DNA of 64,000 nt from Tubulanus polymorphus (GCF_964204645.1 NC_134034.1:5988914-6052913); one strand, 5' to 3'. Positions 2,064 through 40,689 are shown, counted from the first letter of the stretch. Notes: generated by a model from the sequence alone, not told the origin. A program made the numbers and translations.

Positions 2064-2898
2064 ACCACATAATTATTATTATTACCAGTTAATTCTATAT
2101 CAGCTGATAAATAAATACTATTTGAAACATAAAAATTATTTTGATTTAATCTCGGAATTCTAACATATAAAATGTCATTTGGATTAATCTAAGAGGGATT
2201 ATGAGTAATTATGTGATGACAACGTTCTCTTTAATTGCGTTAGATATTCTAGAATTATTTGAAGGATCTATATATTTTGCATTCGCCATTTATTAAGAAA
2301 AAAAATTTCTCATGTATTTTGTATCATATTTACTAATACAAAAAATGCACTTACGTACAACTGTAAATAAGAATAAAATTATATTTTCAGCAGCAAAACT
2401 AATAATATTTCCAGCAGATTTTGAAATAAAAATAACGATTGTTGCTATAATTCCAGGTAAAGCTGCAGCAGATGTTTTAGATAATTCCCATAAATATTTT
2501 GCTAATTTTCTTAGTCCATCTTTAACTTTCTCTTGTATAGAATCATTGCTTGGAGGCTACTTGGGATTTAGGTATAGATTTTAATGAATTTTATATAGCT
2601 AAACCCATTGTTGTAAAAATCATTGTTATAGCTGTTGTAACTGAAAAAATAGTAAAGCCTTCTAATTTAAATCATGATTTTATGCTATCATTCAATGATA
2701 ATTTAGAATTTGGTTTTATAGATAAATCTTTAAAATACCTTTTAATTTCTTAATTTGATTTAGATCATATGATTTTACTAATATATCTCTTTCTTCTTTC
2801 TGTAATTCAATATCATATTTTGCATCACCAATTTCTTTTTCTAAATATGAAATTTTCCTTTAATATTCAGTTTCATCAATTACTTGAAGATCTTTATT
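2064..2898 (-). pseudogene. Old Polinton fragment P0, part 1: 3' end of coiled-coil/membrane gene plus N-terminus of major capsid gene
   Basis: Reverse strand matches P2 ~38790-39630 (LAKYLWELSK, AAALPG; capsid start MANAKYIDPSNNSRISNAIK...GNNNNYV). Confidence 0.85.
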
Positions 2899-2958
2899 AG
2901 TAATTGGAAGATGTGGGTTTCATACCAGAGGGCGAGAGGGCGAGACACCACTCATCAC
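2899..2958 (+). repeat. P1 left terminal inverted repeat
   Basis: Exact reverse complement of 19950-20009. Confidence 0.95.
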
Positions 2959-2984
2959 CACAAGTATTTTTTTTTTCCTAATAA

Positions 2985-5900
2985 ATGGGAGAGAATGAAC
3001 ACCAGCCAGAAAACAATAATGTTAATAAAAATCAATATTATTGCCAATATTGTAAAAAATACATCGATACATCTCATAAACACGACATGAAAAAACTGCA
3101 AATCATATAAAAATGTAATAGATTTTGAAACTCCAGAAAATTCCAATGAAAGAAAAGAAAGATTAAAAAATATGAATGTGGATGAAATAAAATGTGAAGT
3201 TTGTAATGATTTTATAGTAAAAAGGAATTATAATAGACATCTCGAATCACAAAAACACCACCAAAATTTGAGTAATAATGTTTTAGGAAAAGATTATTTT
3301 GACGATAAACCTCAAAAAGTAAAAAAACCAAATTCAAAAACTAAATCCATTTCAAAAAAACCTTACATGGAAAATGTTAGAAAGTTGATTCACTAGAAAT
3401 AAAAGATACAATTGAAATCTTAGAAACATTACGTAGTAAAATTGGTCCTGCAGCTATTATATTTAGATTTTTTAAAGGAACAACAATAGAAGATTATAGT
3501 AAATTTAATGAAATAATAGAAAAAATACTAGATTTGATAACAGATGTTGAATATCCAAAAATTAGTATCTCTGGGAAAGTAAGTTTTATAAAGTCAGAAG
3601 AAAAAATGAATTATAATATTCAAACACACTCTGAAGAAATAATTTCAAAAACACAAATAAAAGAGAAGTTAGAAAAAATATTTAATGAATTTAAACGTCA
3701 TATTGAAGAAAGATATTTTGAGGGTTCTGGCTTAACATTGAATGAAATTATATATTTAGATTTAAATGTTTATAATACAAAAAGAAATAAAACATCAAAA
3801 AGTAATAAAATGTTTAAAAATGCTTCAAACTTTACAACAGAAAAGGATATTAAAGCATCATCTTATATTAAATTACCATTTACAACAAAAGCAGTAATAA
3901 ATGTTCAAAATGAAGATAATAAATGTTTTCTATGGTCAATTATTAGTTGCTTACACCCAACAGAAGATATGACACATAATTTTAGAATAACAAATTACCG
4001 GAAATATGAAACATTATATAAAATTGATCAATATCCAGTAACTATAAAAATGATTCCTAAAATAGAAAAAGTTAATAATTTAAAAATAAATGTATTTGAA
4101 TTAATGCAATTACCAAAGACAAAAGGTGAAAATAGTAAAGATTATACATTGGAAGCTATATATTTAACAGAATATTATGATGATGAAAATGCTATAGATT
4201 TGTTATATTACAAAAAAGATGAAAATGAACATTATATGTGGTTAAAACAAATAGATTTATTCTTTTGAACAGAAAGTGATCATCATCGTAAAATTTATCT
4301 ATGTAGAAAATGTTTATCTAAATTTATGACTGAGAATACATTATTAAAACATAAAGAATTATGTGATAATAAAGATTTTTGTAAATTAATAATGCCAACA
4401 GAAAAAGATTATAAATTGAAATTTACTAATCATAAATTTAAGAACATTGTTCCATTTGTAATTTATGGGGATTTTGAATCGTTGAATAAAGAATTAACTG
4501 ATCAAGATAGAAAAGAAATATATAACAAAAAGCAATTATTAAAATCAATGGATAAAGGAAATGAATTAAATGAAGACACAACACAAGACCCACCAATTAC
4601 AAATACAATTAAAAAAGTTCATCAAAGAGCTGCTGCTAATGGAATTTATATGAAATCAAATTATCCTGAATTATATGAAAGTCAATATATTTCTTTTAGA
4701 GGTGAAAATGTAGTTAATAATTTTTGTGATAAAATGATTGAATTAGAAAGTGATTTTGCAAAATTATTAAACAAAAATAAAAGAATAGTTATGACAAAAG
4801 AAGATGAAATTGATTTTAATTATGCAACTCATTGTTGTTATTGTGAAAAACGTTTTTATTCATTTGATAAAAAAGTTAGAGATCATGATCATTTAAATTC
4901 AATATATCGTGGAGCTGCTCATGAAGATTGCAATTTACAAGCTAAGAAAGTTAATTTCGTACCAATATTATTTCATAATTTATCAGGCTATGATACCCAT
5001 CTATTTATAAAACAATTATCAAGGAAATTGGGTACAATAATCAAGAAATAGAAGAATATAATGCTATGAATGGTGTAAATGTAAGAAAATATGATTTTAA
5101 ACTATTAGCTAAAACATCTGAAAATTATATTTCATTTCAATTTGGTTGCATTAGATTTTTAGATTCTTATAGATTTCTAGCAAGTTCATTAGATAATTTA
5201 TCAAAAAGTTTAGTTGATAATGATTTTGTTATAACTCGATATTATTATCCAAATGAACAAGATTTTAAATTATTGAGATATAAAGGTGCAATTCCTTATT
5301 CATTTTATAAAACACACAATGATTTTAATGTAACAGAATTATTAAAATATCAATTTTATGATCAATTAAAAGAGGAGTATGTGAAAGACGAAGTGTTTAA
5401 TAGAACATTAAATATTTTGAACCATTTTAAGATGAAAAATCATGGTGAATTAGTTGATTTATATTTAAAATCAGATGTTATGATATTGGCTGACATATTT
5501 GAAAAATTTAGAGAAGTTAATTTAAATCATTTTAATGTTGATCCTTGTTATTGCTACTCTAGTCCTGGTTTAACCTGGCAATGTGGTTTAAAATATACAA
5601 ATGTAGAATTAGATTTATTAAAAGAACCAGATATGGTTTTATTATTTGAAAAATCAATTAGAGGTGGAATTAGTTGTGTTATGGGAGATAGATATTTTAA
5701 AGCAAATGATGAATATAAATTATTATATATTGACGCCAATAATTTATATGGTTGGGCAATGATGCAACCTCAACCATACAAAAATTTGATATTAACAGAA
5801 GTTGAAAATGATGATAAAACTAATTGGGAAAGCGCAATTATGAGTTTAGAAGATGAAGCACCAATTGGTTATTTCTTTGTAGTTGATTTAGAATATCCTG

Positions 5901-8045
5901 AAAATATAAAGTTTAAAACAAGAAACTTACCTTATTCCCCAGAAAATTTAACTGTAGATGATAGTTATTTTAGTGAATACCAGAAGAAAATAAAACCGAA
6001 AGATCATGTTTTTACAGAAAAATTAATACTTACTCAAAATAATAAATACAATTATATTGTTCATTATAGAATGTTAAAATTTTATCTAAAACAAGGAATG
6101 AAATTAAAGAAAGTACATAGATATATTGAATTTAATCAATCGAAGTGGTTAGAAAAATATATAGATTTCAATATTCAACAGAGAACCATATCAAAAACAG
6201 ATTTTGAAAAAGATTTCTTCAAATTAATGAATAATAGTTTTTATGGAAAAACATGTGAAAATATTAGAAATATAAATGATATTGAATTAGTAAATAATTC
6301 TGAAAGATTAAGACATTTACAATCAAGCCCTAGACATTTAGGAAATAAAAGATTTGAAGATTATTTAACAGCAGTTAAATTAAAAAGAACTTCAATGAAA
6401 TTTAATAAACCAATATTTATAGGTTCAACTGTTTTAGAAATATCAAAATTATTAATGTATGATTTTTATTATAATTTTTTACAACCACTTTTTGGGGAAA
6501 AGCATATTGAAATATTATATTTTGATTCTGTAACAGCTGACACCCCAATATTATTAAAATGTAATGATAAAATATTGATAAGAAGAATTTCAGAAATAAT
6601 TCCAAAACAAAATGAATGTTATATTTCATATGGTGAAAAAGAATTAATACAAATAAATGGTTTAATGGATGTTTGGACAAGAAATGGATGGAAAAAATTA
6701 AAGAATATTATTAGGCATAAAACAAATAAGAAAATCTATAGAGTTAGAACTAAATTAGGGTTCGTTGATGTTACAGAAGATCATAGTTTAATTAAACGAA
6801 ATGGCGATGAAATAAAACCAACTGATATAAAAATTGGAGATGAATTATTACATAAAAGATTTTTCCAAAGAATGAATCATATGTCATTTGATGAAATTAT
6901 TGATAATATTTATAATATAGAACCCGAAACATTAGAAGAAAAAGAATATTTTATCAAAGGATTTTTCATGGGTGATGGTTCAGCAGGTGTGGATAATTAT
7001 GTTTGGGGTAATAAATACTGTTGGTATTTATGCAATCAAGATTTAAAATTATTAGAAAGAATTAAGAAATTCTGTGAAGAAGTTTATTCACATAAAACAT
7101 TTAGAATCATGGATCATATGAAATCATTAGCAGTTTATAGAATACTTGTAAATAATCCTAAAGATTTTGCTATAAAATATAATGATGAATTCTATATTCA
7201 TGCAATAGTGAAAGTAATACTTCAACTAAAGAAAAGATAGTTCCAGATTATGTATAAATGCAAAAAATAATTTAAGAAAATGGTTCTTCATTGGATTCTA
7301 TGCAGCAGATCGTGCTAAAAAATTTACAAAGGATAAAAGATAACCTTTGCTCAAAAAGGAAAAGTTGCTATATCAGGATTGAATATATTATGCAATTCAT
7401 TAGGTTTTAATATGGATATTGGATTGATTAAATCTAAACCAAATTGCTTTAATCTAAGCCACACAGAAAAAGATTTAACTGAAGAAGTTAAAGATTTATT
7501 TGAAATATATAACCCATTAGATTATGTTTATGATTTATCAACTGAAGATGGTACATTTAACAGTGGATTTCCATTAATTTGCTTCAATACTGACGGTTAC
7601 ATACTAAAAATCAAGACAAATGATATAACAAAAGACTTAAAAACATTAAAACATTATTTTGATTTAAGCAATTATCCCAAAGATCATGAACTATTTAGCA
7701 ATGATAATAAAAAGATTCCTGGTAAGTTTAAAGATGAATTAGGGGGTGATGAAATGATTGAATTTGTTGGGATAAGAAGTAAAATGTATAGTTACAGAAC
7801 AAAAGATCATGAAGCTAAAAAGTTAAAAGGAATAACAAAACATGTGGTTGATAAACATATAGAATTTCAAGATTATATAAAGTGTTTATATAACTCAATT
7901 GTAATGAAACACAAAATGAATTGTTTAAGATCAGAAGATCACGAGATGTACATTAATGAAGTTGAAAAAAACTAGTTTGAATCCATTTGATGATAAAAGG
8001 CATATTTTAGATGATGGTATAAAAATATTACCTTATGGTTATTAA
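2985..8045 (+). pseudogene. polB: Protein-primed family B DNA polymerase (N-terminal zinc fingers, OTU-like region, EndoVII/HNH-like finger, exonuclease, polymerase), intein-containing, disrupted
   Basis: NEDNKCFLWSI, IYGDFES, RDHDHL..YRGAAH..CN, FHNLSGYD, FLDSYRF, YIDANNLYG, KLMNNSFYGK, YFD|intein|TDG; several stops and frameshifts. Confidence 0.95.
6527..7588 (+). mobile_element. Intein with LAGLIDADG homing endonuclease in PolB motif C (frameshifted)
   Basis: Block A SVTADTPILL, block B VTEDHSL, LAGLIDADG-like FIKGFFMGDG and WFFIGFYAAD, block F/G YVYDLSTEDGTF...ICFN|T; removal restores YFD-TD as in P2/P3. Confidence 0.95.
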
Positions 8046-9356
8046 AACATAAAATCAATATCATCATACTCGAAATTACTATTGGCTTCTTCATTTTCAT
8101 TTAATTGTTTAGGTTCTTCTTCCATTTCATTTTTCTTATTTAAATAAAGTTCTATCTTGTTCCACATTTCATCTCGCTCTCTTTGTTTCTTTTTGTTTGT
8201 TAATTCATCAAATGGAATTATAATATCTATGTTTAAATAATTTACAATCTTATTTAAAAAGAATTCATAATTTATTGAATCTGTTATTCTATTTTCCAAA
8301 TGATACATTAATATTTGTTTGAATATTTTTTTTATATTTTTCATATCTTCTTCTGTTAATTTAGGTTTTTCATAATAATCGTTAAATAATAAATATAAAT
8401 ACATTTTCTTTTCTTTTGTGTTAAATGTTGACGGAATAATTGTTTTTATAATATCTTTTTTAGTTATTTCACCATTTTTATTTTCTATTATTTTCATTTT
8501 TTCAAGCCATTGCATATATTCTGGTGTATGATCTTCTATAGAAAATGTTTTAAAAATTTCATCTAGATAATTTAATTTTGGATCTATGAGAAAATTTCTA
8601 GTTTTTTCTTCACTCCATAAATTCTTTTGCCATCCACATTCATTACAAAATAACACAGTACCTTCTTGCCTTAAGGTCGCGTAACTACATTGTGGACATT
8701 TTCGTTTATAATTTATTGGTAATAGATCTTCATTAAGCTCTTGGTATTTTCTTACGTTTTCTTTACGTTTTATTGTTCTATTATGTAGATTTGAATTACT
8801 TGTAATAATCAATTTACAATATTTACAATAATATATTTTTCTTGTTAATTAATTATATTGTTTTTCTAACTTTTCAACTGTTTCTTTATTATCTGGTAAC
8901 GTTTTCTCATATTTTATTTTTTCTAATAGATTATTTTTTCTTTCATTGAATTCAGTTTCAAATTTATTAGAAATTTTATCTATATGTGCTTTACGAAATT
9001 GATGATTCTCCCAATCTTCTATATTTTCAGGGCTATATTTTATTCGACAAGGCTCACAGAAATGATCTTTTATATTATCCTTATCATAGAATAAGAAAGG
9101 TCTTTTCCAAATAATTTCAGGTTCAACTTCAACAGAATTACTATTACTTTCATCACTATCAACATTAGCCGTTGCGCCATTAATTTTACACTTCTCTGAA
9201 TGTTTTTTAACATGATTTCTTGATAATTAATTTATTACATTTTGGGCAGTTTATTTTAGGGGGTTTATAATTTTCATCATGTTTTTTCATATGTCGAGCC
9301 ATATTACTTTTTCTTAGAAGTTTACCACAAATTTCGCATGCTATCTTCTCATCCAT
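8042..9356 (-). pseudogene. Zinc-finger / VLTF3-like (poxvirus A2-type late transcription factor) gene, 5' part frameshifted
   Basis: Start at 9356 MDEKIACEICGK..RHMKKH (C2H2); ORF 8042-8812 has CPQC..CNECG zinc ribbon, SINYEFFLNKIVNYL and KKQRERDEMWNKI resembling the VLTF3 C-terminus. Confidence 0.65.
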
Positions 9357-9423
9357 TTATTAAGGAAAAATTTTATCAAAATTAATTTTTAGTGATGAGC
9401 GGTAATTTTTTATGTTATAAATA

Positions 9424-10211
9424 ATGGTAGAATTAAAAGAATACAGAATATTTGTTGATTCTAGAAAACTTACAAATTATAAATCACATAATTTATTAGT
9501 TCAATTAGATAGAGAATTTAAGAATTATGTAGATTTAAAATTAGTAAATATAAGTTTATGTAACTCATTTTACAATATATCGGATAAAACTGACGAACAT
9601 AGAACCTTTTTTATTTATGAAAGACGTAATAGAAAAATAGCTTATCAACTTATGATTACACCAGGATTATATAATTTAGAAACATTAGCGAAAGAAATAA
9701 ATAGAAAACTCGGATTATGTTAGGTAGTGATTCTAAATTTAATATTAAATTCATAAAAAGTGAGAGCTCTAATTTTATTAGAGTAAAGTTTGATGATGAA
9801 AGTGTTGATGATTCATTGATGATAAGAAAACATGCTTACATGGTAAAAAAACCTTTTTCTAAACTGTTAGGAATTCTTTCAGATACTTTTATTTACGGAA
9901 ACACATATGGTATATCAAATATAATACCTTTTACACATTTTTATATTTATTGAAATTTAATTGATCCTACAAAAACATTCGAAGCAACTAAAGAAACAAT
10001 TTGTAATTCTAGTATATTAAATATTTTACCATTAAAAAATGTTAAACAATTTGGAACGCAAATAAATTATAATTTAGCTGAATGTGATTTTAAACCTTGT
10101 ATTCCACATTTCAATAATTTCAAATTAGAAATAAGAAATCATAATGGTTATTTAATTGATTTGAATAACTTTCCTGTAATTTATGAATTAATTATAAGAT
10201 GTAGAGAGTAA
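9424..10211 (+). pseudogene. Minor capsid (penton, single jelly-roll) protein, disrupted
   Basis: IFVDS, NSFYNIS, PGLYNLE.L...IN, LEIRNHNG.LIDLN motifs; intact homolog at 34053-34808. Confidence 0.75.
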
Positions 10212-10227
10212 TTTTTTCATTATATAA

Positions 10228-10587
10228 ATGAATATAACTGTTGGACCGAGTATATGTTTTGGGTTTGATTTTAAACATGAGAAAGAAATGAAATTTAACA
10301 TTAATGATGTAATTACACAAATCAAAAATATTGTATTTTCTAATGAAACATCATTTGAGTATGAAACAACAATAGATAAAGAAACTTTAAATGTAGAAAA
10401 GATTACTAATTTAATTAGAGAATCTTTAAGATTTTATGAATTAGATGAAGATTTTATCATAGATGATATTAAAAACATATTAACCGAAATATATGATAAT
10501 CATAAAAGTAGTAATGAAATAAATGTTGAATTATTCATCACTAAGTTGACTAAATATTTTGAAGATAGTAATTTTTTTGATAAATAA
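10228..10587 (+). CDS. Conserved acidic hypothetical Polinton protein
   Basis: 119-aa ORF, homologs at the same position in P2 and P3. Confidence 0.7.
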   Translation: MNITVGPSICFGFDFKHEKEMKFNINDVITQIKNIVFSNETSFEYETTIDKETLNVEKITNLIRESLRFYELDEDFIIDDIKNILTEIYDNHKSSNEINVELFITKLTKYFEDSNFFDK

Positions 10588-10809
10588 ATGAGTGATGATA
10601 AGTGGATAATAACTGGATTATATAATGGCTCATTATTATCAGTTGGAACTGTTGGTTATTCAATGGTATTAAAAAAAGTATTTAAAATGGGAAGTGTTAA
10701 TGTTGATAGATTTGATATAAATGATATCTTAAAATTAACATTAGCAGTTACTTTATCTAATTTAACTATTGATTATTTAGAAAAACAAAAATATATTCCT
10801 CCTATATAA
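10588..10809 (+). CDS. Small hydrophobic putative virion membrane protein
   Basis: 73 aa, two hydrophobic segments, conserved in P2/P3. Confidence 0.7.
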   Translation: MSDDKWIITGLYNGSLLSVGTVGYSMVLKKVFKMGSVNVDRFDINDILKLTLAVTLSNLTIDYLEKQKYIPPI

Positions 10810-10833
10810 ATGCGTAATTATTTTGCTAAATAA

Positions 10834-11256
10834 ATGGCTTCTGCAATTATAACTATTATAGGATCGGCAATTGTTAACGCTTTAGCATTTACTGGTGGTG
10901 GATATTTATTTAAACATATTGATAAAAATAGTTCATTAGGAGAACAAAGAAGACATAATTTAGCGTTAGAAAAATTAAATAAAGCAGAGGAAGAATATAG
11001 AGAAAAGAGACAAAACTATATGGATTATATTAACAAAGAATTATATGATCAGAATATTTCACACAGAGATTTTCAATCAGTTGATGATGCAATGAGTTTA
11101 TATAACGCGGTAACCAATAAAGAAAAATTACATCTATACAAACCTAAATTATCAGATTATTATACCCCAAGTAAAGAACAACAGAAATATGAAATAATTT
11201 GGATTTTAGGTGGAACAGTTATTGTTATATTTGTAGCATATAAATTTACTAATTAG
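10834..11256 (+). CDS. Putative membrane protein (N- and C-terminal hydrophobic helices, central coiled coil)
   Basis: MASAIITIIGSAIVNALAFTGG...RRHNLALEK...IIWILGGTVIVIFV; intact in all three elements. Confidence 0.8.
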   Translation: MASAIITIIGSAIVNALAFTGGGYLFKHIDKNSSLGEQRRHNLALEKLNKAEEEYREKRQNYMDYINKELYDQNISHRDFQSVDDAMSLYNAVTNKEKLHLYKPKLSDYYTPSKEQQKYEIIWILGGTVIVIFVAYKFTN

Positions 11257-11275
11257 TAATTTTTTTTCTAAATAA

Positions 11276-11710
11276 ATGGAAGATAAAGTTGATAATATTG
11301 ATATTATTCCTCATGATATGAATAAAACTAAATTAAAAATATATTTAGAAAAACAAATATTAGAATTTGAAAATGATTTAAAAGTTAAAAAGAAAAAATA
11401 TTTAAAAAGTAAAATTATATATTATTTGATTATTAGTGGTTCGGTTACAATAAGTTCTGTAATAACATTTCTAGCAATATTCAGTCCATTAACACCTTTA
11501 GCTATATCAATTGGTGTGTTAGGATTATCATCAAGTGTATTAACTGGTATAAGTTCAAAATTAAATATAAAAAGTAATAAAGAAAAAATTAAAACTAATA
11601 TAAAAGAAATTAATAAATTAAAGAATACACTAGATTATATAATAAGTTTAAATGGTCATATAACAGTTGAAGAACAAGATAAATTATTAAAAGAATTAAT
11701 AAATTATTAA
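11276..11710 (+). CDS. Two-TM membrane protein with coiled-coil flanks
   Basis: Hydrophobic hairpin IIYYLIISGSVTISSVITFLAIF...LAISIGVLGLSSSVL; homologs in P2/P3. Confidence 0.75.
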   Translation: MEDKVDNIDIIPHDMNKTKLKIYLEKQILEFENDLKVKKKKYLKSKIIYYLIISGSVTISSVITFLAIFSPLTPLAISIGVLGLSSSVLTGISSKLNIKSNKEKIKTNIKEINKLKNTLDYIISLNGHITVEEQDKLLKELINY

Positions 11711-11726
11711 TTTTTTAGTTATATAA

Positions 11727-13115
11727 ATGGCAGATAGTTTTCAAAAAGCTTTCCAATATAATAAATCAATTAAATATAATATTCCAGCAATAGATTTTAA
11801 TAAAGATATTTCATATAGAAATGAAGTTTTAAATTCATTAATTGATTTAGAAATTTATGTTACTGAAACTAATAATTTTAATGCAAAGATGGAAAATATA
11901 TTTCATGTATATTTAATTAATTTTAAAAAATTGAAAGATGAAAAACAATGGTTATTAAAATCTAATATGAAGTATTGGCAGAACCAATTAAATTTTGCTG
12001 TTTATTGTGCAATAACAGGTTGTGGAATTAGTTGTAATGATCATTTGAATAATTCTAAATATAAATTAATTCAAAGTTTATTTAGATTTTATACATACTT
12101 TCAAATCAGAATAATATTAAATGAATTAGAGTGCGCTTTACCAGGATCTAGATATTTTAAAGAATTAGATAATAATATTAATTTATCAAAGTTTTATAGA
12201 ATTTGTAATGAATTTAATATAGATATAAATAATTCTGATTTTAGAACAAAAATTGGAACAATAAGATCACTTCCTTGCCCTAAAAAGATTGCAGAATATT
12301 GTGCACTTCCCATACCATCTAATAGTTTTTATAATATCTATAGTAATAAATTAGGTTATGGTAAAATAGAAACTAAGGATTTAGAAACATTAAATTTCAA
12401 TAAATTACCGAAATTTTATGATAATTTAAAACAAGAAAACAATAATGGTTGGGTTTATTTCATTTAAGAAAATAATGAAGGTTTTACAAAATCAGGTATA
12501 CAAAGAATAAATCAATCTATTAGAACTTATTTGATATGTATTTTAGGTGCGCAAGTTGAAACAAGATCCCCAATGATTGGAAATTTAAATACATCATTCG
12601 ATACACAAAAACAATTTAAAGTATTATTTGAAGATTCAATTCATGATGATAAAAATAGATCGATTCCAGAAAACATTGTAAGCTATCAAAATTATTTAGA
12701 TAAATCACATATTAGATTAAATTATTGTATAGGTCCTAATCAATTAATTATTTCTAATGATTTAGTATTAAAGATGGGAAACATAATTGGTTAAAATAAT
12801 CTAATTAAAACTGCAACAATAAATAATTCATTTGGATTAAATGATATAAGTAAAAAGATTATTACTGCTCCAAAATTAATGGAAGGCGAAAAAAATAAAA
12901 AACATATTCAATCAACAGAAACTAAAACTAAGAATATTAAATTAAATAATGATTCTAAAATAAAAGATTACAATACATCAGAAGATATAAAAACTGATAA
13001 GATTCAACATGAAATAATTAAACTAAATGATGATAATAAATCCCATGAAAATACTAAATTAGCTTTAACTTGTATAGGAATTGTAATCGGAGGAATATTA
13101 TATTTTAAATTTTAA
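11727..13115 (+). pseudogene. Conserved Polinton protein of unknown function with C-terminal TM anchor, disrupted by stops
   Basis: WQNQLNFAVYCA.TGCGIS motif; three in-frame pieces; homologs at 36328-37653 and 60233-61675. Confidence 0.75.
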
Positions 13116-13131
13116 TTTTTTTATTATATAA

Positions 13132-14545
13132 ATGGATGTAGAAGGTGGAGAAGATATTGGAATGGATCCTTTTGATGAACCTGGTATAAGTGATGAACAA
13201 CCACCTGATTTTGATGAAACAAGTTTTAATGACGGTAATGAGCCAGAATATAGTAATAATTTGAATATGCCTGATTATATTAAAAATGCCGAATCACAAT
13301 TAAATCCTGAAAATTGAAACCCAGATTTAGTAAAACAAGATTTAGATAATTTAAACAAAATACCCAAATAAGAACGTATAATTGAAAATTCTAAACTTAA
13401 TATAAATGATGAAGACGTTGGACTTTTAGCATATCAATTAAAATTTTTAGATAATGGTAAATGTTATTATCGTTTGAAAGGTGATTATTATATTGATATC
13501 ACTTCTAAAAATAATAAAAAAATATTAGCGGAATCAACTTCGAAAAGTTTAAAACCAGATAAAATTAAAATAATAAGTAATAGTAATGAAATAACTGATG
13601 TTACACAAAAAGAAATAGATGATAATATAGACGCATTTAAACAAAGATATAATGAATTATTTGAAATAATCAAAAAGAAATCAGACACAGAAACAACTTC
13701 TGAACCGAATATAACTTCCAAAACTAGTAAACTTAAATCAAATAAAGTTCCAATTGAAAAACTTTTACCGAATGGATTACTTGATGCAACAGATCAAGAA
13801 TTAGAAGATTTAGATATATTTTCTGATAAAGCAATTAGAGAAATTATTAGTATAAGACATGCATCTGATAAAATTGCGCATGATAAAAGTATAAGAGATT
13901 TTAAAATTCGAACTTTAGAAAAAGACAGAACTGATAAAATTAAAGAAATAGAACAATTAAAATTAGATAGAGATAATAAAGTTATTGAAGAAATTGAATT
14001 TAAAAAAAGAAATGCATATTTAGAAAAAGAAATTGATGATATAGAATATAACATAGAATTACAAAAAGAATAATATTAGAATAATATTAATAGATTAAAA
14101 GTTATTTTTAAAGATTTGTTAATAAAACCAAATTCTGAAATATCATTAAAAGATAGAATAAAATCATTATTTAAATTAGAAGGAATAACAATTCTTTCAA
14201 TTCTAACAGCTGTAACTATGTTATTTACAACAATTGGTTTAGCAATATCAAATGCATTAAAATCTACGCCTACACCCAATAAACCGGATAAACCCCCGAA
14301 TGATAATAATTCTATACAAGATAAAGTTAAGGATGGTTTTAAAAAATTAGCAAAATATTTATGGGAACTATCTAAAAAATCTGCTGCAGCTTTACCAGGA
14401 GTAATTGCATCATTGTTGGTTTTATATTGAAATGCAGGAAACATTATTAACTTTGCTGCTGAACATATTATTTTATTTTTAATTACAGTTGTAAGTGCTA
14501 TTATTTTTGGGTTAGTGAATATGATATCAAAAGGATATCAAGAAA
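13132..14545 (+). pseudogene. Large acidic/coiled-coil protein with C-terminal hydrophobic helices, disrupted
   Basis: Colinear with intact 476-aa ORF 61638-63068; 3' end approximate. Confidence 0.75.
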
Positions 14546-14586
14546 AAAATAATAAAAAATGAATAATTAATTTTTTTGTTAAATAA

Positions 14587-15829
14587 ATGAGTGGGAGTTA
14601 TATAAGTCCTTCTAAGAATTCTAGAATATCTAATGCTATTAAAGCAGAAAGATCACCTCATATAATTACTCATAACCCTTCTAATATTAATCCTGATGAA
14701 ACTTTATATGTTAGAATCCCTAGATTAACACAAAATACTTTTTATGTTCCAAATAGTATTTATTTATCAGCCGATATAAATTGGTCATGATAATAATTAT
14801 GTTGTTGATAATGTTAGGAGATATTTGATTAAAAAATTAACTATAAAGATTGGTCCAGAAACAGTTTTCTCATTAGATGATTATAATTTATTTATGCATT
14901 ATAAAGATTTATGGTTAACTAAAGAAAATAGAAATAATATGATATTTCAGGGTATTCAATCGGAAAACCATAATAAATTAAGATCAGGAGCTAATGACGC
15001 AATAGTAACTCGTGCCGCAGATAATTTGATTAAAAAGATTTATGGAAGCAAATATAAAATTCCATTAGAGTTTGAATTGATAAATAATAATGCACCTTTA
15101 TATAAATATGTAATTCAAGAAGATATTATATTTGAGATAACATTTGCTCCTGTAAATGAAATTGTATTATCTAGCGTTGTTAAAGATATGGGTTATAAAT
15201 TATCGAATATATGTTTAGAATATGATACAGTAACTAATGAAAATATTGCTAGCACAATTCAAACTCAATACAATCAAGGATTTTCATTATTATATGATTA
15301 TATTGATAAATTTAAAACTGTAACTATTAATGCAAATGATGAAATAATTAATGAAAATATTAACTTCCCAAGAAGATCTATTAAAGGTATATTAATATTT
15401 TTTACCATTGCAACGTATTCTAATGGAGCAATAAAGGTAGATAATTATTATAATCCTGAAATAACAAAAGTTGAAATAACTATCGAAGGAATAGCAAATA
15501 AAATATTTTGTCAAGGAATGAGAATGATTGATCAGTGGCCAGAAATTAGAAAACATTTTATGAATGAAAAAGTAAAATCATTTGAAAATTGTAATATTAA
15601 TCAAATTGATTATTTTACCGGCAATAAATATGCATTATGGTTAGATTTTAGAACAACAGAGGATAATTCATTACATGGTTCTGGGAAAAAACTACAAAAT
15701 ACTAAAGATGGAATACAATTATTCATGACAAAGAAAAAAGGAAGCCTAAATTTCAAAATGCACACTTATATTATATCTGACGCGCAATTAAATATTGTAA
15801 ATTCACAATTAGATAGTATTCAATATTAG
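14587..15829 (+). pseudogene. Major capsid protein (double jelly-roll type), frameshifted near 14780-14820
   Basis: ~410 codons, beta-rich, position before integrase/ATPase, highly conserved in P0/P2/P3. Confidence 0.8.
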
Positions 15830-15859
15830 AAATATAAAGTTAAAATTAAGGATATATAA

Positions 15860-16987
15860 ATGGGTGGTAAAAAAACTCCTAATACTAAAGAACAATATTT
15901 AAGAAATTTATATTACAACCCTGAGAGTTCGGTTGCTTATTCTTCTACCAAAAATATATGGAGTAAAGTAAAACAAGATAAATTAGATAAGATAATCCCA
16001 CAAAATTTAGTTAAATATAAAGATATAAATGAATTTATGTTAGAACAACCAACATATACAACACATAAAAAAATTATTAGAAAATATAAAACTCGTAAAA
16101 CTATGGTAAGTTATATAGATCAACAGTGGCAAGGAGATTTAATTGATATGAAAAATGTTAAGAAAGATAATGATGATTATTGGTGGTTATTGAATATAAT
16201 TGATATTTTTAGTCGTTATGTATGGAGTTTCCCACTTTATAGAAAAGATGCTGTACAAACATCAAATGTTTTAAGAAAATTTCTTTCGGATGATAAACTA
16301 AAACCAGAAAAAATACAATTTGATGATGGAAAAGAATTTGATAATTCACTTGTTCATGAACTCTTAGATAATCATAATATTAAATATTTTTCAACAAAAT
16401 CGGATAAAAAAGCAGCAGTTGTTGAACGATTTAATAGAACATTAAGAACAAGTGTGTGGAAATATTTTACAGCAAATAATACTTTTAAATGGATTGATGT
16501 TTTACCAAAATTGATAGAAGGATATAATAATTCTTATCATTCTTCTATTGGAATGAAACCTATCGATGCTAGAAAACCTGAAAATGCTGAAATTGTTTGG
16601 AATAATTTATATGGAGCATTTCTTGTAGATGATTTTGGTGAACCTATATTTAAAGTTGGTCAAAATGTTAGAATTTCTAAGTATAAAAAGATATTTGACA
16701 AAGGATACGATCGAAATTTTACTAGGGAAATATATAAAATAAAAAAGGTAATAACAACAAAACCATATGTCTATAAATTAGAAGATTTAGATGGTGAAGA
16801 AGTTGATGGCTACTTTTACGAAGAAGAATTAAGTTTAACTACTGAAAATCTAGAACAAGAATATAAAATTGAAAAAGTATTAAAAACAAAAACTATTAAA
16901 AGAAAAAAATATTCTTTAGTAAAATGGGTTGGATGGCCAGATAAATTTAATGAATGGATATTATCAAGTAAAATTAAAAATATATAA
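15860..16987 (+). CDS. Retroviral-like (rve) DDE integrase with C-terminal chromodomain
   Basis: QWQGDLIDM, IDIFSRY, QFDDGKEF, VERFNRTL, YNNSYHSSIGMKP; chromo YKIEKVL...LVKWVGWPDKFNEWI; intact ORF. Confidence 0.95.
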   Translation: MGGKKTPNTKEQYLRNLYYNPESSVAYSSTKNIWSKVKQDKLDKIIPQNLVKYKDINEFMLEQPTYTTHKKIIRKYKTRKTMVSYIDQQWQGDLIDMKNVKKDNDDYWWLLNIIDIFSRYVWSFPLYRKDAVQTSNVLRKFLSDDKLKPEKIQFDDGKEFDNSLVHELLDNHNIKYFSTKSDKKAAVVERFNRTLRTSVWKYFTANNTFKWIDVLPKLIEGYNNSYHSSIGMKPIDARKPENAEIVWNNLYGAFLVDDFGEPIFKVGQNVRISKYKKIFDKGYDRNFTREIYKIKKVITTKPYVYKLEDLDGEEVDGYFYEEELSLTTENLEQEYKIEKVLKTKTIKRKKYSLVKWVGWPDKFNEWILSSKIKNI

Positions 16988-17596
16988 ATGAATAAAGAAT
17001 TATTTATATTTGAGCCTCATAATATGTTAATTTCTGGCGTAACAAATTGTGGAAAAACTTATTTTATATTAAATTTATTAGAAACTGTTTATGAAAACTA
17101 TTTTGATAATATAGTATTATTTTGTCCAACATATGAATTTAATCAAACTTATGATAGAAATATTACTAAAAATAATAAATTTATTATATTAGATCCTAAA
17201 ACAGTAAAAGAAAATTTAGATATTTGTATAAAAATAGCAATTGATATTTATAAAGGATCAAATACATTATTTATCATAGATGATTGCGCAAATTTACATG
17301 ATTCAAAAGTTAGAGAAAGTGAGTTATGCTATTTAGCTTTTTCTGGTAGACATTTTGGGATAACAACTTGGGTTTTAAATCAAAAATATAATTCAATTGT
17401 TAAAGACTTTAGGGAGAATATAAGATTTCTAGTTTTATTCTACAATCAAGATAGAAAATCGATGAAAAATGCACTTGAGGAAAATGATATTATTCCACAT
17501 GATTTACATAATGAATATATGGATAAGTTGAAAAATATTAAAAGATCAAAATTACTGTTTAGATTACAACACCCATTTAAATATGAATTTATTTAA
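16988..17596 (+). CDS. A32/FtsK-like genome packaging ATPase
   Basis: Walker A GVTNCGKT, Walker B FIIDD, GRH and Q..R.N motifs; intact. Confidence 0.92.
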   Translation: MNKELFIFEPHNMLISGVTNCGKTYFILNLLETVYENYFDNIVLFCPTYEFNQTYDRNITKNNKFIILDPKTVKENLDICIKIAIDIYKGSNTLFIIDDCANLHDSKVRESELCYLAFSGRHFGITTWVLNQKYNSIVKDFRENIRFLVLFYNQDRKSMKNALEENDIIPHDLHNEYMDKLKNIKRSKLLFRLQHPFKYEFI

Positions 17597-17599
17597 ATT

Positions 17600-17868
17600 C
17601 AACTAGCTTGTTAATCTAGTTGAATTCTAGTTACATTCTAGTTGAATTCTAGTTATTGGTATTGGAACAAAAATCAACTAGATTTAACAATATTTTAACT
17701 AGCTTGTTAATCTAGTTTAATTCTAGTTACATTCTAGTTGAATTCTAGTTGTTAGTAGTTGGAACAAAAATCAACTAGATTTAACAAGAAATAAACAAAA
17801 ACAACAATATTTCAACTAGCTTGTTAATCTAGTTGAATTCTAGTTACATTCTAGTTGAATTCTAGTTG
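17600..17868. repeat. Three ~55-bp units of CTAG/GAATTC-rich non-coding repeat
   Basis: aactagcttgttaatctagttgaattctagttacattctagttgaattctagtt at ~17602, ~17697, ~17814. Confidence 0.85.
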
Positions 17869-17900
17869 CAACAACACAATTAATTTTTTTTGTTATATAA

Positions 17901-18488
17901 ATGGGAGGTGAAAAGAAAATAAAATCTAAAAATGGTGATGTTCCAATTGAAAAAACTTTAGATGATTTAGGAATAACAGAAAACAAATTAATTCCAGATG
18001 ATGGTGCTTTAAATAATGTTACAACAAATAATAATTATGAATATTATCTTTATTGTAAACATCAATTAGAAATATTAATAGCATCTGGAAAATGTAAAAA
18101 TTTTGTCGGTAAAAATTTAACTTATAATGAACTAGATTCAATGAAATCAGATGAAATTATTAGATTATTTAAGATTTATGAAGCCGCGAGAACAGCTAGA
18201 ATTAATGACGCGATATCAGAAAATGTAGTAAAAGGTTATAGTAAATTATGTAATTATACACTACCAATTGATGATGAAAATAGATTATATTCCGATTTAA
18301 AAAATGACTATTTAGTTATGACTGAATTAAATAAATGGATTGGATATTCATCATTTCAATTAGGCGGATTTATGACATTATTATCAACTGGGGTTATAAC
18401 ATTTTCAAATATTGAAAGTAAAAATATTTCTATAATAAATGAGCGAGGTGAAAGAAGTGAAGGAATTAACTGTGAAGAAAAAACCTAG
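17901..18488 (+). CDS. Conserved hypothetical Polinton protein (gene X)
   Basis: 195 aa; homolog at 41853-42455 in P2. Confidence 0.8.
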   Translation: MGGEKKIKSKNGDVPIEKTLDDLGITENKLIPDDGALNNVTTNNNYEYYLYCKHQLEILIASGKCKNFVGKNLTYNELDSMKSDEIIRLFKIYEAARTARINDAISENVVKGYSKLCNYTLPIDDENRLYSDLKNDYLVMTELNKWIGYSSFQLGGFMTLLSTGVITFSNIESKNISIINERGERSEGINCEEKT

Positions 18489-18773
18489 ATCACAGAAACA
18501 AATTGAATGGTCTCGGCAATTAGGAATTAAATCACAAGAATATAAAAAGCTGTAAAAGAAAAAATAAGTAATAAAAATGTTAATAAAAATAGTGAAAATA
18601 TTGTTATTTCTACTCCTTCTAATGATAGAATATTTGATAAATGTCTATATTTTACAGTTGGATTTGTAATTGTATTCATTTTGATTGGGTGTAATTGGTA
18701 TAAGAAATCAAATAAAATTCATGATATTAATAATTCTGAAACAACTGCTATCAAAAATGAAAATAATTCTTAA
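18439..18773 (+). pseudogene. Small basic protein with TM segment (gene Y), frameshifted
   Basis: TAAATG start; KKPRSQKQIEWSRQLG matches KKARSEKQIKWARELG in P2 (41860, minus). Confidence 0.6.
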
Positions 18774-18996
18774 ATTCCAAAATTGACAATAAAAAAATGG
18801 ATTAATATTTTAGAAAAAAAGGCAAAAAAAATAATTTTTTTTAATCAATTGAATATTAATTGAATATCTCACTACTTTTGTCTATCACTGTGTGGGTGCC
18901 GTTTATGGCACCATCTACGCGGAGCAATTAAATTGTCCAGATAAGTCATTTCGGATTCTAGATATTCATTATTTTTATTAATTTATTTTTTTAAAT

Positions 18997-19326
18997 TTAA
19001 TCAACAATTTCTAAATCATGATGTCCATCTTCATTTTTTCCATGATATAATATTATTTTAAATCCTTCTAAATCTTTTAATTCCTCTGTCCTCAATGAAA
19101 CCCATTTATCAGGTAAAAATACTTTAAATTCTCGCGATGTACTAACCTTACAGTAGCTTAAATTAGCTGATACTTTCTCTCCATATTTAGTTTTTATCTT
19201 TTCTAATTTCAATATTTTATGTTCAATTTCTTTTGTAACATCAACTAACTTTTTTATTTCAAATTGTTTTTTTGCTGGTTTTATTCTGTTATTTATTGTT
19301 GCTAAGAATGCTTTTCTATCTCCCAT
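18997..19326 (-). CDS. Small protein, possibly OB-fold ssDNA-binding
   Basis: KKL..., TKYGEKV, FKVFLPDK pattern shared with 57602-57943; fold is inference. Confidence 0.55.
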   Translation of the reverse strand: MGDRKAFLATINNRIKPAKKQFEIKKLVDVTKEIEHKILKLEKIKTKYGEKVSANLSYCKVSTSREFKVFLPDKWVSLRTEELKDLEGFKIILYHGKNEDGHHDLEIVD

Positions 19327-19348
19327 TTATTAGGAAAAAGAATTACTC

Positions 19349-19949
19349 GTGGTGATGAGCGGGGATTACTTCCCCTTGTATATAACAAACACCCTATTAA
19401 CCGTTGTCACCCAAGCCTCACAGCATCTATTTATCCGGGTACAGTTAACACACGCGCAGCTGTTGTTACGCGCACTCACTGTTTATGTGTGTCACAATTT
19501 TACTGCGTAATATTTCTAAAATTTCAATTGTATCTTTTATTTCTAGTGAATCAATATAATTTCTAACATTTTCCATGTAAGGTTTATTTGATTTATCAAT
19601 GTATTTTTTACAATATGGACAATGATATTGATTTTCATTAACATCAATTTGTTCTGTCTTATTCTCTTCCATTTATACGGAAACAAAATTATTTGTGGTG
19701 ATGAGTGGGGATTACTTCCCCTTGTATATAACAAGCACGCTATTAACCGTTCTCACCAAAGCCTCACAGCATCTATTTATCTGGGTACAGTTGACACGCA
19801 ATCACTGTACTACAGTAATAGCACACGCGTTAATAACCGTTCTCAGTAGAGACTCACTGTATCGGTCTATCCACGCGCAGCTGTTGTTACGCGCACTCAC
19901 TGTATATGTGTGTCACAGAGCAATCGTCCGTTCTCACTAGAGCCTAGCT
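19349..19949. repeat. Subterminal direct repeats enclosing a deleted inverted copy of the polB 5' end (ORF 19466-19672)
   Basis: ~19349-19497 repeats ~19695-19917; the ORF matches the P1 PolB N-terminus. Confidence 0.8.
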
Positions 19950-20009
19950 GTGATGAGTGGTGTCTCGCCCTCTCGCCCTCTGGTATGAAACCCACATCTT
20001 CCAATTACT
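19950..20009 (-). repeat. P1 right terminal inverted repeat
   Basis: Reverse complement of 2899-2958, followed by TSD TTTATT. Confidence 0.95.
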
Positions 20010-29134: not shown

Positions 29135-29613
29135 AGTAATAGGCGTAATGGGCTTTCAAGCCAAAGGTCGAACGGTCGAGTGAGTAAAAAATGAAAAACA
29201 TGAAAATAATTACAATTTCTACTTGAATTACTCGCGAAACTCATAAAAATGAAAAATAAATTCTCACACGCTCTAATTTATTTTTCATTTTTATGAGTTT
29301 CACTCCTAATTCAAGTAGAAATTGTAATTATTTTCATGTTTTTCATTTTTTACTCACTCGCCCCTTCAACCTTTAACCTGAAAGCCTATTATCCCTATTA
29401 CTCTTAAAATAATCATATACGTGAATAACATTCAAATTGACAGATTATTCAATATCAAAGTGTAAGCTCTTATAGAATAAATATAAAAGTATATATTTAC
29501 AACATTATTTCAATATTCATATTTGTATGAGTTAGATTTTAAACATTAAAAGTGTTAGTAAAGTGTGATTGAAATAATACATGATATAAATCATTGAACT
29601 TCTAAAATCAATT
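29135..29613 (+). repeat. P2 left TIR containing a 268-bp imperfect palindrome (29135-29402)
   Basis: Inverted match to ~44772-45227; internal arms fold back around a loop at ~29262-29275. Confidence 0.93.
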
Positions 29614-29636
29614 TTAATAAAAAATTTAGTATTAAA

Positions 29637-32600
29637 ATGGAAGCAAATAAGTACTACTGTCCAACATGTAATATCAATATAGATAAATCCCAAAAAGCAA
29701 GGCACAATAAAACTAAAACACATTTAGAGAATAAATTGAAACTAGAATATAAAGATGATATATTAGAATCTAAATTAGATGAATTAAAGAATGAAAAAGA
29801 AATATATAAATGTGATACATGTAATCAATCATTCAGTGATAAAAGATATTATAATAAACATTTAAAATCTAAAAGTCATATTAGAAATAAGAATAATGAT
29901 ATTTTAGGTGAAGATTATTTTGATTAAGATAATGATAAGAAACAGAAGACAATTAAAAGCATAAAAAGTAAATTAAACAATAAAAGACCATACATGGAAG
30001 ATGTAAGAAATTATATTAATTCATTAGATAATAAAAAAGATATAGAGATAACCGAAGCATTTAAAAGTGATATTGGCCCAGCAGCTATCGAGTTTAAATT
30101 TCATGAAGGAAAAACATTAGAAGAAAATAAAAAACATTTAGAAAATATGAAAAATATTATAAAAATAATTACTGATGTTGATTACCCTAAAATTAGTATA
30201 TCTTCTAAAGTTAAATTCATAAAATCTGAAGATAAACCAATATATAATATAAATTCTCATTCACAACATATTATATCTAAACAACATATAGATGATGAAT
30301 TAGATAAATGTTATAATGAAGTAAAAACTAAAATAGAAGAGAAATATTTTGAAGGATCTGGTTTAATATTTGATGAAATAATATTTATGACTTTACATGT
30401 GTATAACACAAAATATAATAAGTTAACTAAATCAAAACAAATAGATGAAAATAATGTATCATATTATAAAGAACAAGATATTGAAGCATCGAGTTATATT
30501 AAACTACCATTTAAAACTAATGCTGTAATAAATGTACAAAATGAAGATGATAAATGTTTTCTATGGGCTATAACAAGTTGTTTACACCCAGTTGAAGATT
30601 ATAAACAACATAGTTTTAGATTAACTCATCATAAACCATTTGAAAATAGTTATAAGATAGATAAGTATCCTGTTAGAATTAAAAACGTCCCAAAGATAGA
30701 AAGAGATAATAATTTAAGAATAAATGTATTTGATTTAATCAAATTACCAAATACAAAAGGTAACAATATAAAACATTATACATTAGAACCTTTATATCTA
30801 TCAAAAGATTATGATTCAAACGATGTTATAGATATATCATATTATGAGAATCATTATATGTGGATTAAACAAATAGATTTATTTTTTAAATCAGAAAATG
30901 ATCACCATAAAATATATCTATGTAGAAAATGTTTACATAAATTCAGTAATGAAAGTACATTATTAAATCATAAACAATTATGTGAAAATCATGATAATTG
31001 TAAATTAGTTTTACCAAATGAAAAGGATAAAATATTAGAATTCAAAAAATATGATTACAAAAATAAAGTTCCATTTGTAATATATGGAGATTTTGAATCA
31101 TTAAATAAAGAATTAACTGATCAAGATAGAAAAGAAATATATTATAAAAGATAGAAATTAAATTCTAATGAAAATGATTTTTCAGATGAACCACCAAAAA
31201 CAAATACAATTAAAAAGATTCATCAATCAGCTGCAGCTTTCGGGTTATATATTAAATCTGATTATCCAGAACTAATTAAAAGTGAATATTATCATTATAG
31301 AAATGAAAATGTTATCAATCATTTTTGTGACTTATTAATTGAATATGAAATAAGATTTAGTAAATTATTGAATACAAATATAGAAATTATAATGACAGAA
31401 GAAGATAAAGAAAAATTTGCGTTTGCAGATAAATGTTATTATTGTGAAAAGATATTTAATTATAAAGATAAAAAGTAAGAGACCATGATCATTTGAATGG
31501 AAAGTTTAGAGGCGCTGCACATAAGAATTGTAACTTACAAGCTAAGAAAATTAATTTTGTACCAGTTATATTTCATAATCTATCAGGATATGATGCACAT
31601 TTATTCATCAAACAGTTATGCCATAAAATAGAAGAAATTAATAATGAAATAGAAAGATTAAATTCAAATAGATCAAAAGATAAAATACCAACTTATAAAT
31701 TTAGAATGTTAGCTAAAACATCTGAGAATTATATATCATTCCAATTTAGTTGCCTAAGATTTATAGATTCATATAGATTTTTAAATAGTTCATTAGATAA
31801 CTTATCAAAATCATTAGTTGATGATGAATTAAAAATATTAAAACAACACTATGCAAATAATGATGATTTGCAATTAATGAGATATAAAGGAGCAATTCCA
31901 TATTCATTTTATAAATCACATAATGATTTTAATATAACTGAATCAAAAAATGAATATGTTAAAGATGAAGTATATAATAGAACATTGAATATTTGGAATC
32001 ATTTCAAAATAACAAATCATGGACAATTAGTAGATTTATATTTAAAATCAGATGTATTATTATTATCGGATATATTCGAAAGGTTTAGAGATGTAAACCT
32101 AAAATATTTTAACATTGATCCTTGTCATTGTTATTCATCACCAGGTTTAACATGGGATTGTGGATTAAAATTTACAGATATAAAAATGGATTTGTTAACA
32201 AATATAGATCAATTATCATTATTTGAAAAATCTATAAGAGGAGGAGTTTCAGGTGTATTAGGTGATAGATATTTCAATGTAAATGATAAACCTGGTTATT
32301 ATAAAAGTTATTATATATAGATGCAAATAATTTGTATGGTTGGGTAATGATGGAACCACAACCTTATCGAGTATTTGAAATAAGTGAAGTTTTACAGAAT
32401 GAAAATAATGATAAATTTGATTGGAAGAAAAGAATTCTAGATATTGCAGATGATTCAGATACTGGTTACTTCTTTGTTGTAGATTTAGAATATCCTGAAC
32501 ATATTAAATTTAAATCTAGAAATCTAGCATACTGTCCCGAACATAAAACTGTAACTCATGAAGAATTATCAAATTACCAAAAAAGAATTAAACCCGAAAA

Positions 32601-33653: not shown

Positions 33654-33682
33654 TCAAATTTTAATAAAAATATGTTATTAAA

Positions 33683-34035
33683 ATGGAGAGTAAACAAGCG
33701 GAAGTGAGAACAACAAATCATTTCTAGATAGAATAAAAGATACTTCAAATATCAAATCAGTAGATTAAAAATTCAAAAAGTTAACAGAATTAACAATTCA
33801 TAAGAAATATTTAATTACAAATATTGAAACAATTACTAACAAATATGGAGATAAATTAGTTATACACTTAGAATATGAAGGATTAAAAGGAAATACATAT
33901 AAATTCAGAACATATTTACCAGATAGATTTCATAGATTATCAAGTGAAGATTTAGAAGAATTATGTTCTGGAGATTTCTATTTCGTAAACAAAGGTTAGA
34001 ATGAAAAAGGGCACCATGAAATAGATTTCGAATAA
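33683..34035 (+). pseudogene. Small putative ssDNA-binding protein, with stops
   Basis: Near-identical to 57602-57955. Confidence 0.6.
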
Positions 34036-34052
34036 GAAAATATGTAAAATAA

Positions 34053-34808: not shown

Positions 34809-34825
34809 TTTTTTCACTATATAAA

Positions 34826-36311: not shown

Positions 36312-36327
36312 TTTTTTAGTTATATAA

Positions 36328-37653: not shown

Positions 37654-37669
37654 TTTTTTTATTATGTAA

Positions 37670-39388: not shown

Positions 39389-39409
39389 TTAATTTTTTTT
39401 GTTAAATAA

Positions 39410-40657: not shown

Positions 40658-40689
40658 AATTTTAACTTTAATAAAAATTTATATAATAA

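Follow-up and report, generated by a model that had tools for sequence, protein, structure and literature searches.

A probable poxvirus-like promoter at the gene starts of one clade of animal Polintons

Which RNA polymerase reads the genes of a Polinton? Animal Polintons lack an RNA polymerase and are usually assumed to use host polymerase II. The question is raised anew by a 64,000-nucleotide stretch of Tubulanus polymorphus DNA (GCF_964204645.1 NC_134034.1:5988914-6052913; hereafter, the window), which contains three decayed, AT-rich copies (23-25% guanine-cytosine, GC) of one Polinton/Maverick family. A first-pass annotation had noted a fixed-spacing T6-N7-TAAATG motif before structural genes of one copy and likened it to a poxvirus late promoter. 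We find that a broader form of this signal stands at nearly every gene start of one Polinton clade and that, judged from sequence, it is real and matches poxvirus promoters specifically among the viruses sampled. It is probably a poxvirus-type post-replicative (late or intermediate) promoter, and a co-infecting helper virus of poxvirus type probably supplied, in trans, the RNA polymerase that reads it.

Among the hallmarks of Polintons are terminal inverted repeats, termini reading AG...CT and the duplication of a 6-bp target, and elements 1 and 2 of the window end in this way:

Element 1, 2899..20009: decayed copy bounded by AGT...ACT and by a duplicated 6-bp target, nested in an older copy of the same family
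Element 2, 29135..45227: decayed copy with AGT...ACT ends, terminal inverted repeats of ~510 bp and a 6-bp target duplication
Element 3, 53301..64000: decayed copy that extends past the window end

The older, fragmented copy was split by the insertion of element 1 (2064-2898 and 20010-20936). Stops or frameshifts interrupt all copies; they are broken relics, and statements about function therefore concern their active ancestors. The gene set comprises a protein-primed polymerase (Pfam DNA_pol_B_2, E 4e-15 and 3e-12), broken in all three copies; an rve integrase with a chromodomain (15860-16987, E 3e-10); an A32-like packaging ATPase (Pox_A32, E 1e-12); and a double jelly-roll capsid protein whose structure, predicted from the element-2 copy, matched vaccinia D13 and the PBCV-1 capsid in Foldseek (E ~1e-7). 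In element 2 the ATPase was not found, and the integrase is represented by a fragment only. A maturation protease is usual, not universal, in Polinton/Maverick elements; none of the element proteins had a Pfam match to one, and several genes remain without assignment. Contigs of three sequencing runs (10767, 2535 and 331 records) span all 30 bins of 9300-18600; their summed depth does not equal copy number, and contigs cannot show transcription starts.

All seven T6-N7-TAAATG strings quoted in the first-pass annotation are present, at the ATGs at 10228, 10588, 11276, 11727, 13132, 14587 and 17901. The exact N7 spacing was likewise confirmed at 35876, 36328, 37670, 39410, 58743, 59791, 60233 and 63089, a shifted form with a spacer of N8-9 at 42455(-), and TAAATG without T6 at 10834, 15860, 16988 and 18439; the N7 sites at 2985, 59103 and 2289(-) had escaped the earlier list. 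We compared these counts with shuffled sequence preserving 2-, 4- and 6-mers (300 shuffles each for 10212-17903, 60 each for the whole window). The seven sites in 10212-17903 contrast with 0.06, 0.05 and 0.04 expected, respectively, and 0/300 shuffles of each kind reached seven; across the window, 18 sites were observed versus 0.27-0.52 expected (0/60 shuffles each). These 18 are spread over the three homologous copies and the older fragment and correspond to 8 distinct gene starts. Spacers of 3, 4, 10, 11 and 12 bases between T6 and TAAATG had zero matches in the window, all 19 sites with T6 and a 6-8 base spacer lie at gene starts, and none of the 37 non-start TAAATG in element 1 is preceded by a T6 run.

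TAAATG marks 14 of the 15 gene starts in element 1; at the remaining start, TAAAT lies a short distance upstream. The capsid start does have the full motif, but placing the motif before structural genes proved too narrow, as the polymerase start at 2985 has it too; the integrase, ATPase and accessory genes also start at TAAATG. Tandem genes, said to lie 0-40 bp apart, often have gaps of exactly 16 nt, but 304 bp separate 17596 from 17901. Strict T6 is the AT-rich local form, standing ahead of 8/14 element-1 starts versus 2/18 starts in relatives at 48-55% capsid identity, in which a shorter A-then-T tract holds the same register. The starts that carry the signal are:

2966..2987 (+): protein-primed polymerase, T-tract and TAAATG; gene broken, 2985 to ~8040, with an intein inside
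9354..9375 (-): zinc-finger/VLTF3-like gene, A/T-tract and TAAATG; broken gene 9356 to 8042, divergent from 9424
9403..9426 (+): putative penton gene, so labelled from a weak DUF5901 match only; T6-N6-TAAAT with the ATG just downstream
10209..10230 (+): 119-amino-acid gene with no assigned function, T6-N7-TAAATG
10569..10590 (+): 73-amino-acid gene, T6-N7-TAAATG, its TAA also the upstream stop
10815..10836 (+): 140-amino-acid gene, interrupted T-tract and TAAATG
11257..11278 (+): 144-amino-acid gene with a weak SLATT match, T6-N7-TAAATG
11708..11729 (+): broken gene (442 amino acids in the relative L001), T6-N7-TAAATG
13113..13134 (+): broken gene of ~480 codons, T6-N7-TAAATG
14568..14589 (+): major capsid gene, frameshifted (jelly-roll fold from the element-2 copy), T6-N7-TAAATG
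15841..15862 (+): rve integrase with chromodomain (gene 15860-16987), TAAATG without a T-run
16969..16990 (+): A32-like packaging ATPase (gene 16988-17596), A-tract and TAAATG, its TAA the integrase stop
17882..17903 (+): 195-amino-acid conserved gene, T6-N7-TAAATG
18420..18441 (+): small broken gene, A-then-T tract and TAAATG
19324..19345 (-): 109-amino-acid accessory gene, T-tract and TAAATG, with a duplicate start at 19672(-)
34034..44769: element-2 TAAATG starts at 34053, 35434, 35876, 36328, 37670, 39410 and 40690 (+) and at 41860, 42455 and 44750 (-)
57583..63091 (+): element-3 TAAATG starts at 57602, 57972, 58743, 59103, 59349, 59791, 60233, 61638 and 63089
2287..2308 (-): capsid start of the older fragmented copy, T6-N7-TAAATG

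A division into T-class and A-class promoters by gene function was considered and rejected as inconsistent, the polymerase, putative penton and capsid starts changing class between elements. Short blocks of tandem repeats lie at 17598-17868 in element 1 and 42867-43225 in element 2.

To place the signal among other Polinton families, relatives were collected by capsid alignment (best 80 of 160 confirmed loci); in every open reading frame (ORF) that matched a window gene by BLAST, the first ATG was counted as the start. TAA stood immediately before this ATG at 45/54 starts in 15 clade loci with capsids ~48-75% identical, versus 1/222 starts in 59 more distant Polinton loci sharing the gene set, which makes the motif a mark of one capsid clade. 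Where GC contents overlap, the counts were 19/23 for the clade (GC 0.29-0.44) and 0/36 for the outgroup (GC up to 0.40), with p=6e-12, a value overstated because the loci are related. An order-2 model of element 1 gave a composition background of 195/3045, and relatives with a GC content of 36-44% still have the motif. A quick capsid tree of 58 of the 80 loci and three window rows placed the positive loci on one branch (Shimodaira-Hasegawa-like approximate likelihood ratio test, SH-aLRT, 96; 16/17 rows, the exception being L012). Gene order varies among clade members, and accessory genes, including a deoxynucleoside kinase, bear the motif. Conserved across the clade are A at -18/-17, T at -13/-12, T-A-W-A at -7..-4 and TAAATG; from -60 to -21, information content did not exceed 0.11 bit at 64 starts.

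A second, distant group (L054, L056, L057 and L065; capsid ~32% identical), counted separately, had TAAATG at 7/7 checked starts, and six of its starts scored above all shuffles (0/5000) on the poxvirus matrix described below. L054 sits on a long branch, which is compatible with one or two origins of the signal.

We then compared the clade with poxvirus promoters. Vaccinia late promoters have a conserved T at the tenth base before TAAAT, according to the available part of PMC11980589, and intermediate promoters an A-rich stretch, according to that of PMC5294985. As a reference, we used 19 of 35 chordopoxvirus loci (L193-L225 among the cited loci), one per divergent group. TAAATG heads 202/484 ORFs in the chordopoxvirus loci, and 206 TAAATG starts of ORFs of at least 70 codons, which are not independent because homologous genes recur across genera, favour A from -19 to -15, with T most frequent at -13/-12. 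T occupies these two positions at 84% and 87% of 55 clade starts versus 70% and 59% of the 206 poxvirus starts. A matrix made from poxvirus TAAATG starts only (positions -22..-8) was scored against 5000 position shuffles, and element 1 (14 starts), close relatives (23) and distant clade members (18) each exceeded every shuffle. In these three sets the best shift fell within -2..0; it was 0 for the distant clade members and the second group, with a plateau from -2 to +1 for element 1 and close relatives. Non-start TAAATG showed no excess (1349/5000), and a matrix from 61 starts of GC-rich poxviruses gave the same outcome. Divergent gene pairs share the layout CATTTA...TAAATG, with 14-30 nt between ATGs in the clade and 7-30 nt in poxvirus loci. 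Other large viruses had TAAATG at 16/124 starts (22 loci) and 105/1026 starts (81 loci), with matrix scores at or below the shuffles; these 103 loci are of unidentified taxa, with entomopox-, asfar-, ego- and iridoviruses not knowingly among them. The proposed likeness to poxvirus late promoters thus survived clade restriction, AT-matched controls, register against the 206 poxvirus starts and back-to-back layout.

Since nearly all genes start at a signal resembling a poxvirus late promoter, the element likely depended on a poxvirus-type virus for the reading of its genes. The leaderless transcription by a pox-like polymerase that the first-pass annotation proposed would then proceed as follows. 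By analogy with vaccinia, transcription would begin at TAAAT, within its AAA, and a 5' poly(A) leader made by slippage would take the place of the T at -3, yielding mRNAs without a templated leader. Such slippage is established for vaccinia and yeast linear elements in the accessible part of PMC6211774; here, the leader would supply an A at -3. If Mavirus and Sputnik are a guide, the integrated element would stay silent until helper infection, upon which polymerase, capsid, integrase and all other genes would be expressed in the helper's factory, with re-integration through the element's own integrase. More speculatively, the VLTF3-like protein of some copies might supplement or redirect the helper's late machinery.

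Several observations weigh against a helper-read promoter. No helper virus was found when viral sequence was queried with the motif, polymerase, kinase and VLTF3-like sequences. The extended motif occurred in 102 viral stretches with one match each, and in the 80 with flanks, TAAATG headed 58/501 ORFs. Pattern counts versus controls in five records were 14 vs 3, 8 vs 6, 25 vs 10, 5 vs 5 and 2 vs 5; record G001, followed further, had TAAATG at 4/22 starts, and G003 was covered over 6 kb only. A poxvirus polymerase alignment recovered chordopoxviruses only, the kinase query returned one locus and the VLTF3-like query none, and capsid relatives were absent from viral_contigs; locus L128 includes the end of a canonical VLTF3, yet no ORF begins at its match to the motif. 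As for the promoter, the element-1 starts of broken genes were hand-picked, partly via the motif, so the mechanical counts in relatives weigh more. AT-rich outgroup Polintons also scored weakly above shuffles (24/5000; 36/3000 with the GC-rich-poxvirus matrix), and a first profile test with only 10 poxvirus starts failed to set signal apart from control (r=0.47 for element 1, 0.12 for close relatives and 0.49 for the non-start control). The clade conserves T-A-W-A at -7..-4, and chordopoxviruses do not. Outgroup Polintons, too, have divergent pairs 12-46 nt apart, but without the CATTTA...TAAATG layout. Nor is a pox-like early programme seen: coding strands show just a mild depletion of TTTTTNT, the poxvirus early terminator (9 vs 16.3 expected; 5/500), and 5/9 sites lie in the element-1 polymerase gene, which itself has the T-tract motif. 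The VLTF3-like gene was not detected in element 2 or the in-window part of element 3, and according to the available text of PMC11253617, VLTF3 occurs in the mriyaviruses, which have no RNA polymerase and are probably nuclear; its presence therefore fits a host polymerase as well as a helper's. Finally, two checked relatives of the element-1 intein match polymerase delta best, and no poxvirus chain is among the matches listed.

This intein, decayed, occupies 6527 to ~7560 (+) of the element-1 polymerase at a catalytic YxD|TDS-type site and was not seen in elements 2 and 3. At least 120 relatives are listed; the nearest are in two other protein-primed polymerases, most of the rest in RNA-primed family B polymerases and some in type II topoisomerases. 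Deoxynucleoside kinase genes (Pfam dNK, E ~1e-31) are found in two clade members (L001:10343-10981(-) and L008:2898-3377(-)); the one in L001 carries the motif, and its divergent partner gene has an N-terminal match to a VLTF3-like fusion, P0223. To judge by sequence, the intein and kinase suggest gene traffic between Polintons and large DNA viruses.

A helper-independent promoter is the alternative that fares best, though we consider it unlikely. Host RNA polymerase II would be recruited in the nucleus by an element-encoded zinc-finger/VLTF3-like factor, acting in trans between copies, and the pox likeness would have arrived with the borrowed factor. Consistent with this, the element integrates into nuclear DNA, polymerase-less mriyaviruses carry VLTF3, and a VLTF3-like gene is present in element 1 and relatives and was not detected in 17 outgroup loci of at least 8 kb. 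In element 1, the C-terminal ORF of this gene has a Pfam match at E 3e-6, which is lost on a longer piece, but the protein connects at E 2e-4 with P0227, itself a strong VLTF3 (Pfam E 1e-24), as well as with the relatives P0223-P0225; its single-sequence fold had a predicted local distance difference test (pLDDT) score of 45, and a word-based homologue search gave no match. The same gene went undetected in two of the three window copies. A Pfam scan of 73 proteins encoded in the window and the loci, which divergent genes could escape, had no match to RNA polymerase, TBP or TFIIB, apart from an Rpb5 match in one of two control proteins included from giant-virus locus L110; no conserved box lies upstream of -21. 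Under the Kozak rule, T at -3, a position occupied by A in 83% of 29 starts from AT-rich outgroup Polintons, fits polymerase II poorly, as do the closely spaced divergent pairs, which leave no room for a leader.

It is less probable still that the motif acts in translation, with a U-rich tract and in-frame stop guiding initiation or re-initiation on long or polycistronic mRNAs. The fixed distance to the ATG, G at +4 in 15/20 starts, the 16-nt tandem gaps and the abutting stop and start at 10588 and 16988 would all suit such a role. Those two are, however, the only ones among 32 starts at which TAA doubles as the upstream gene's stop, the motif precedes first genes as well as each gene of a divergent pair, and its register is that of a DNA promoter.

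We give very little credence to a DNA-level replication, resolution or packaging signal. The pattern does overlap the concatemer resolution sequence of poxviruses as the first-pass annotation gives it, T6-N7-9-(T/C)AAA(T/A); elements 2 and 3 end in palindromes, and one poxvirus record has an exact match in each of its terminal repeats (L109, L150). The poxvirus sequence is known only beside hairpin termini, whereas here all 19 T6-flanked sites stand at start codons along the element and none in the terminal palindromes, the motif near the ends being found only before gene starts; the element moreover has a protein-primed polymerase and integrase-type ends. The concatemer idea is thus unsupported.

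Chance in AT-rich DNA, helped by stop-codon and Kozak context, can be dismissed: despite 23-25% GC and only 8 distinct starts behind the 18 sites, it is refuted by the shuffles, the clade and outgroup counts, the non-start control, the order-2 background and persistence at 36-44% GC, and TAA is rarely an upstream stop and -3 is T. A TATA-box reading was also rejected, as such a box would run into the start codon and homology among capsids sets in at residues 1-3, and so was a trans-splice acceptor, there being no AG ahead of the ATG.

The palindromic ends of elements 2 and 3 lie at 29135-29402, 44961-45227 and 53301-53452 (~270 bp in element 2 and ~150 bp in element 3) and fold as single-stranded DNA at -100, -113 and -56 kcal/mol; element 1 is without a second palindrome arm. 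All 8 window matches to AAAAATGAAAAA, which resembles the poxvirus early core, are inside the element-2 palindromes (0.48 expected); they represent one or two units multiplied by palindrome symmetry, and element 3 lacks the G. The ratio of observed to expected CpG is 0.44-0.66 in the elements versus 0.74-1.04 in the flanks. The host DNA holds a long (AT)n microsatellite and retroelement fragments with reverse transcriptase, which we take to be DIRS-like and LINE-like (21613-23243, 46186-51778 and 20973-21144).

Returning to the poxvirus-type promoter read by a helper, its presence clade-wide would divide Polintons of one gene set into two lifestyles, and the signal would serve as a sequence marker for helper dependence that predicts an undescribed poxvirus-type virus in the hosts. 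As for virophage-like traits, no element protein had a Pfam match to an RNA polymerase; the promoter type matches chordopoxviruses, and no helper of the same host was found. We tentatively raise a further possibility, which we rate somewhat below even, that the clade represents endogenous 'poxvirus virophages': every gene would be wired to the late machinery of an undiscovered poxvirus-type virus of the hosts, the VLTF3 of some copies would capture that machinery, and the many integrated copies would be its footprint and perhaps also an inherited protection from it.

How does the clade compare with known systems? The yeast cytoplasmic linear elements pGKL1/2, for which we know of no capsid or integrase, differ in encoding their own RNA polymerase and capping enzyme. 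They share linearity and a TAAAN initiator, at which, in the accessible part of PMC6211774, slippage produces the 5' poly(A) leaders of their transcripts.

With animal Polintons and Mavericks, as portrayed in the available text on 'adintoviruses' (PMC8502044) and coral polintoviruses (PMC11131425), the clade shares a protein-primed PolB, rve integrase, A32-like ATPase, jelly-roll capsid and terminal repeats, and VLTF3 is reported there in a subset of Polintons (PMC11131425). It differs from most in its motif, which is largely absent from relatives that have this gene set and capsids 30-43% identical; no protease was detected here. Promoters go unmentioned in the accessible portions of these two sources and of bioRxiv 2026.10.13.758929 and 2024.03.23.586382. 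Entomopoxvirus-associated Polinton-like viruses, one of them integrated in a beetle genome, have been proposed as poxvirus parasites (Barth et al. 2024, PMC11296320). As far as the available text goes, their link to poxviruses rests on co-packaging and shared genes, they are ~12 kb long with a protease, and two PolB elements have no detectable integrase; the main text, as distinct from the supplements, does not mention promoter, motif or TAAAT.

The clade resembles vaccinia and other chordopoxviruses in the late and intermediate promoter itself, with TAAATG over the start codon, a T peak 10 bases before TAAAT and A-rich bases ahead of the peak, as well as in back-to-back promoters 13-30 nt apart and the occurrence of both T-rich and A-rich variants. 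Unlike in chordopoxviruses, the putative promoter heads ~83% of clade genes versus 42% in poxvirus loci, including the element-1 DNA polymerase, T-A-W-A is conserved at -7..-4, and RNA polymerase was not detected in the element.

Promoter sharing with a giant helper is established for Mavirus, Sputnik and PgVV in the available parts of bioRxiv 2022.07.28.501842 and 2025.10.09.676808 and PMC10328495. Like Mavirus/EMALEs, Sputnik and PgVV (Gezel-14T), the clade consists of small, polymerase-less, capsid-coding elements in which most genes have a promoter of helper type; integration is shared with Mavirus. Unlike here, where the host DNA appears to be animal and the promoter is of poxvirus type, those systems have protist hosts, mimivirus-like helpers and other motifs, and their dependence was shown experimentally. 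Our literature search, with subscription literature mostly outside it, returned no report of poxvirus-type promoters in animal Polintons. Helper-promoter sharing in protist virophages and VLTF3 in Polintons were already known; what appears to be new, from the sequence comparisons made here, is a poxvirus-type promoter in animal Polintons.

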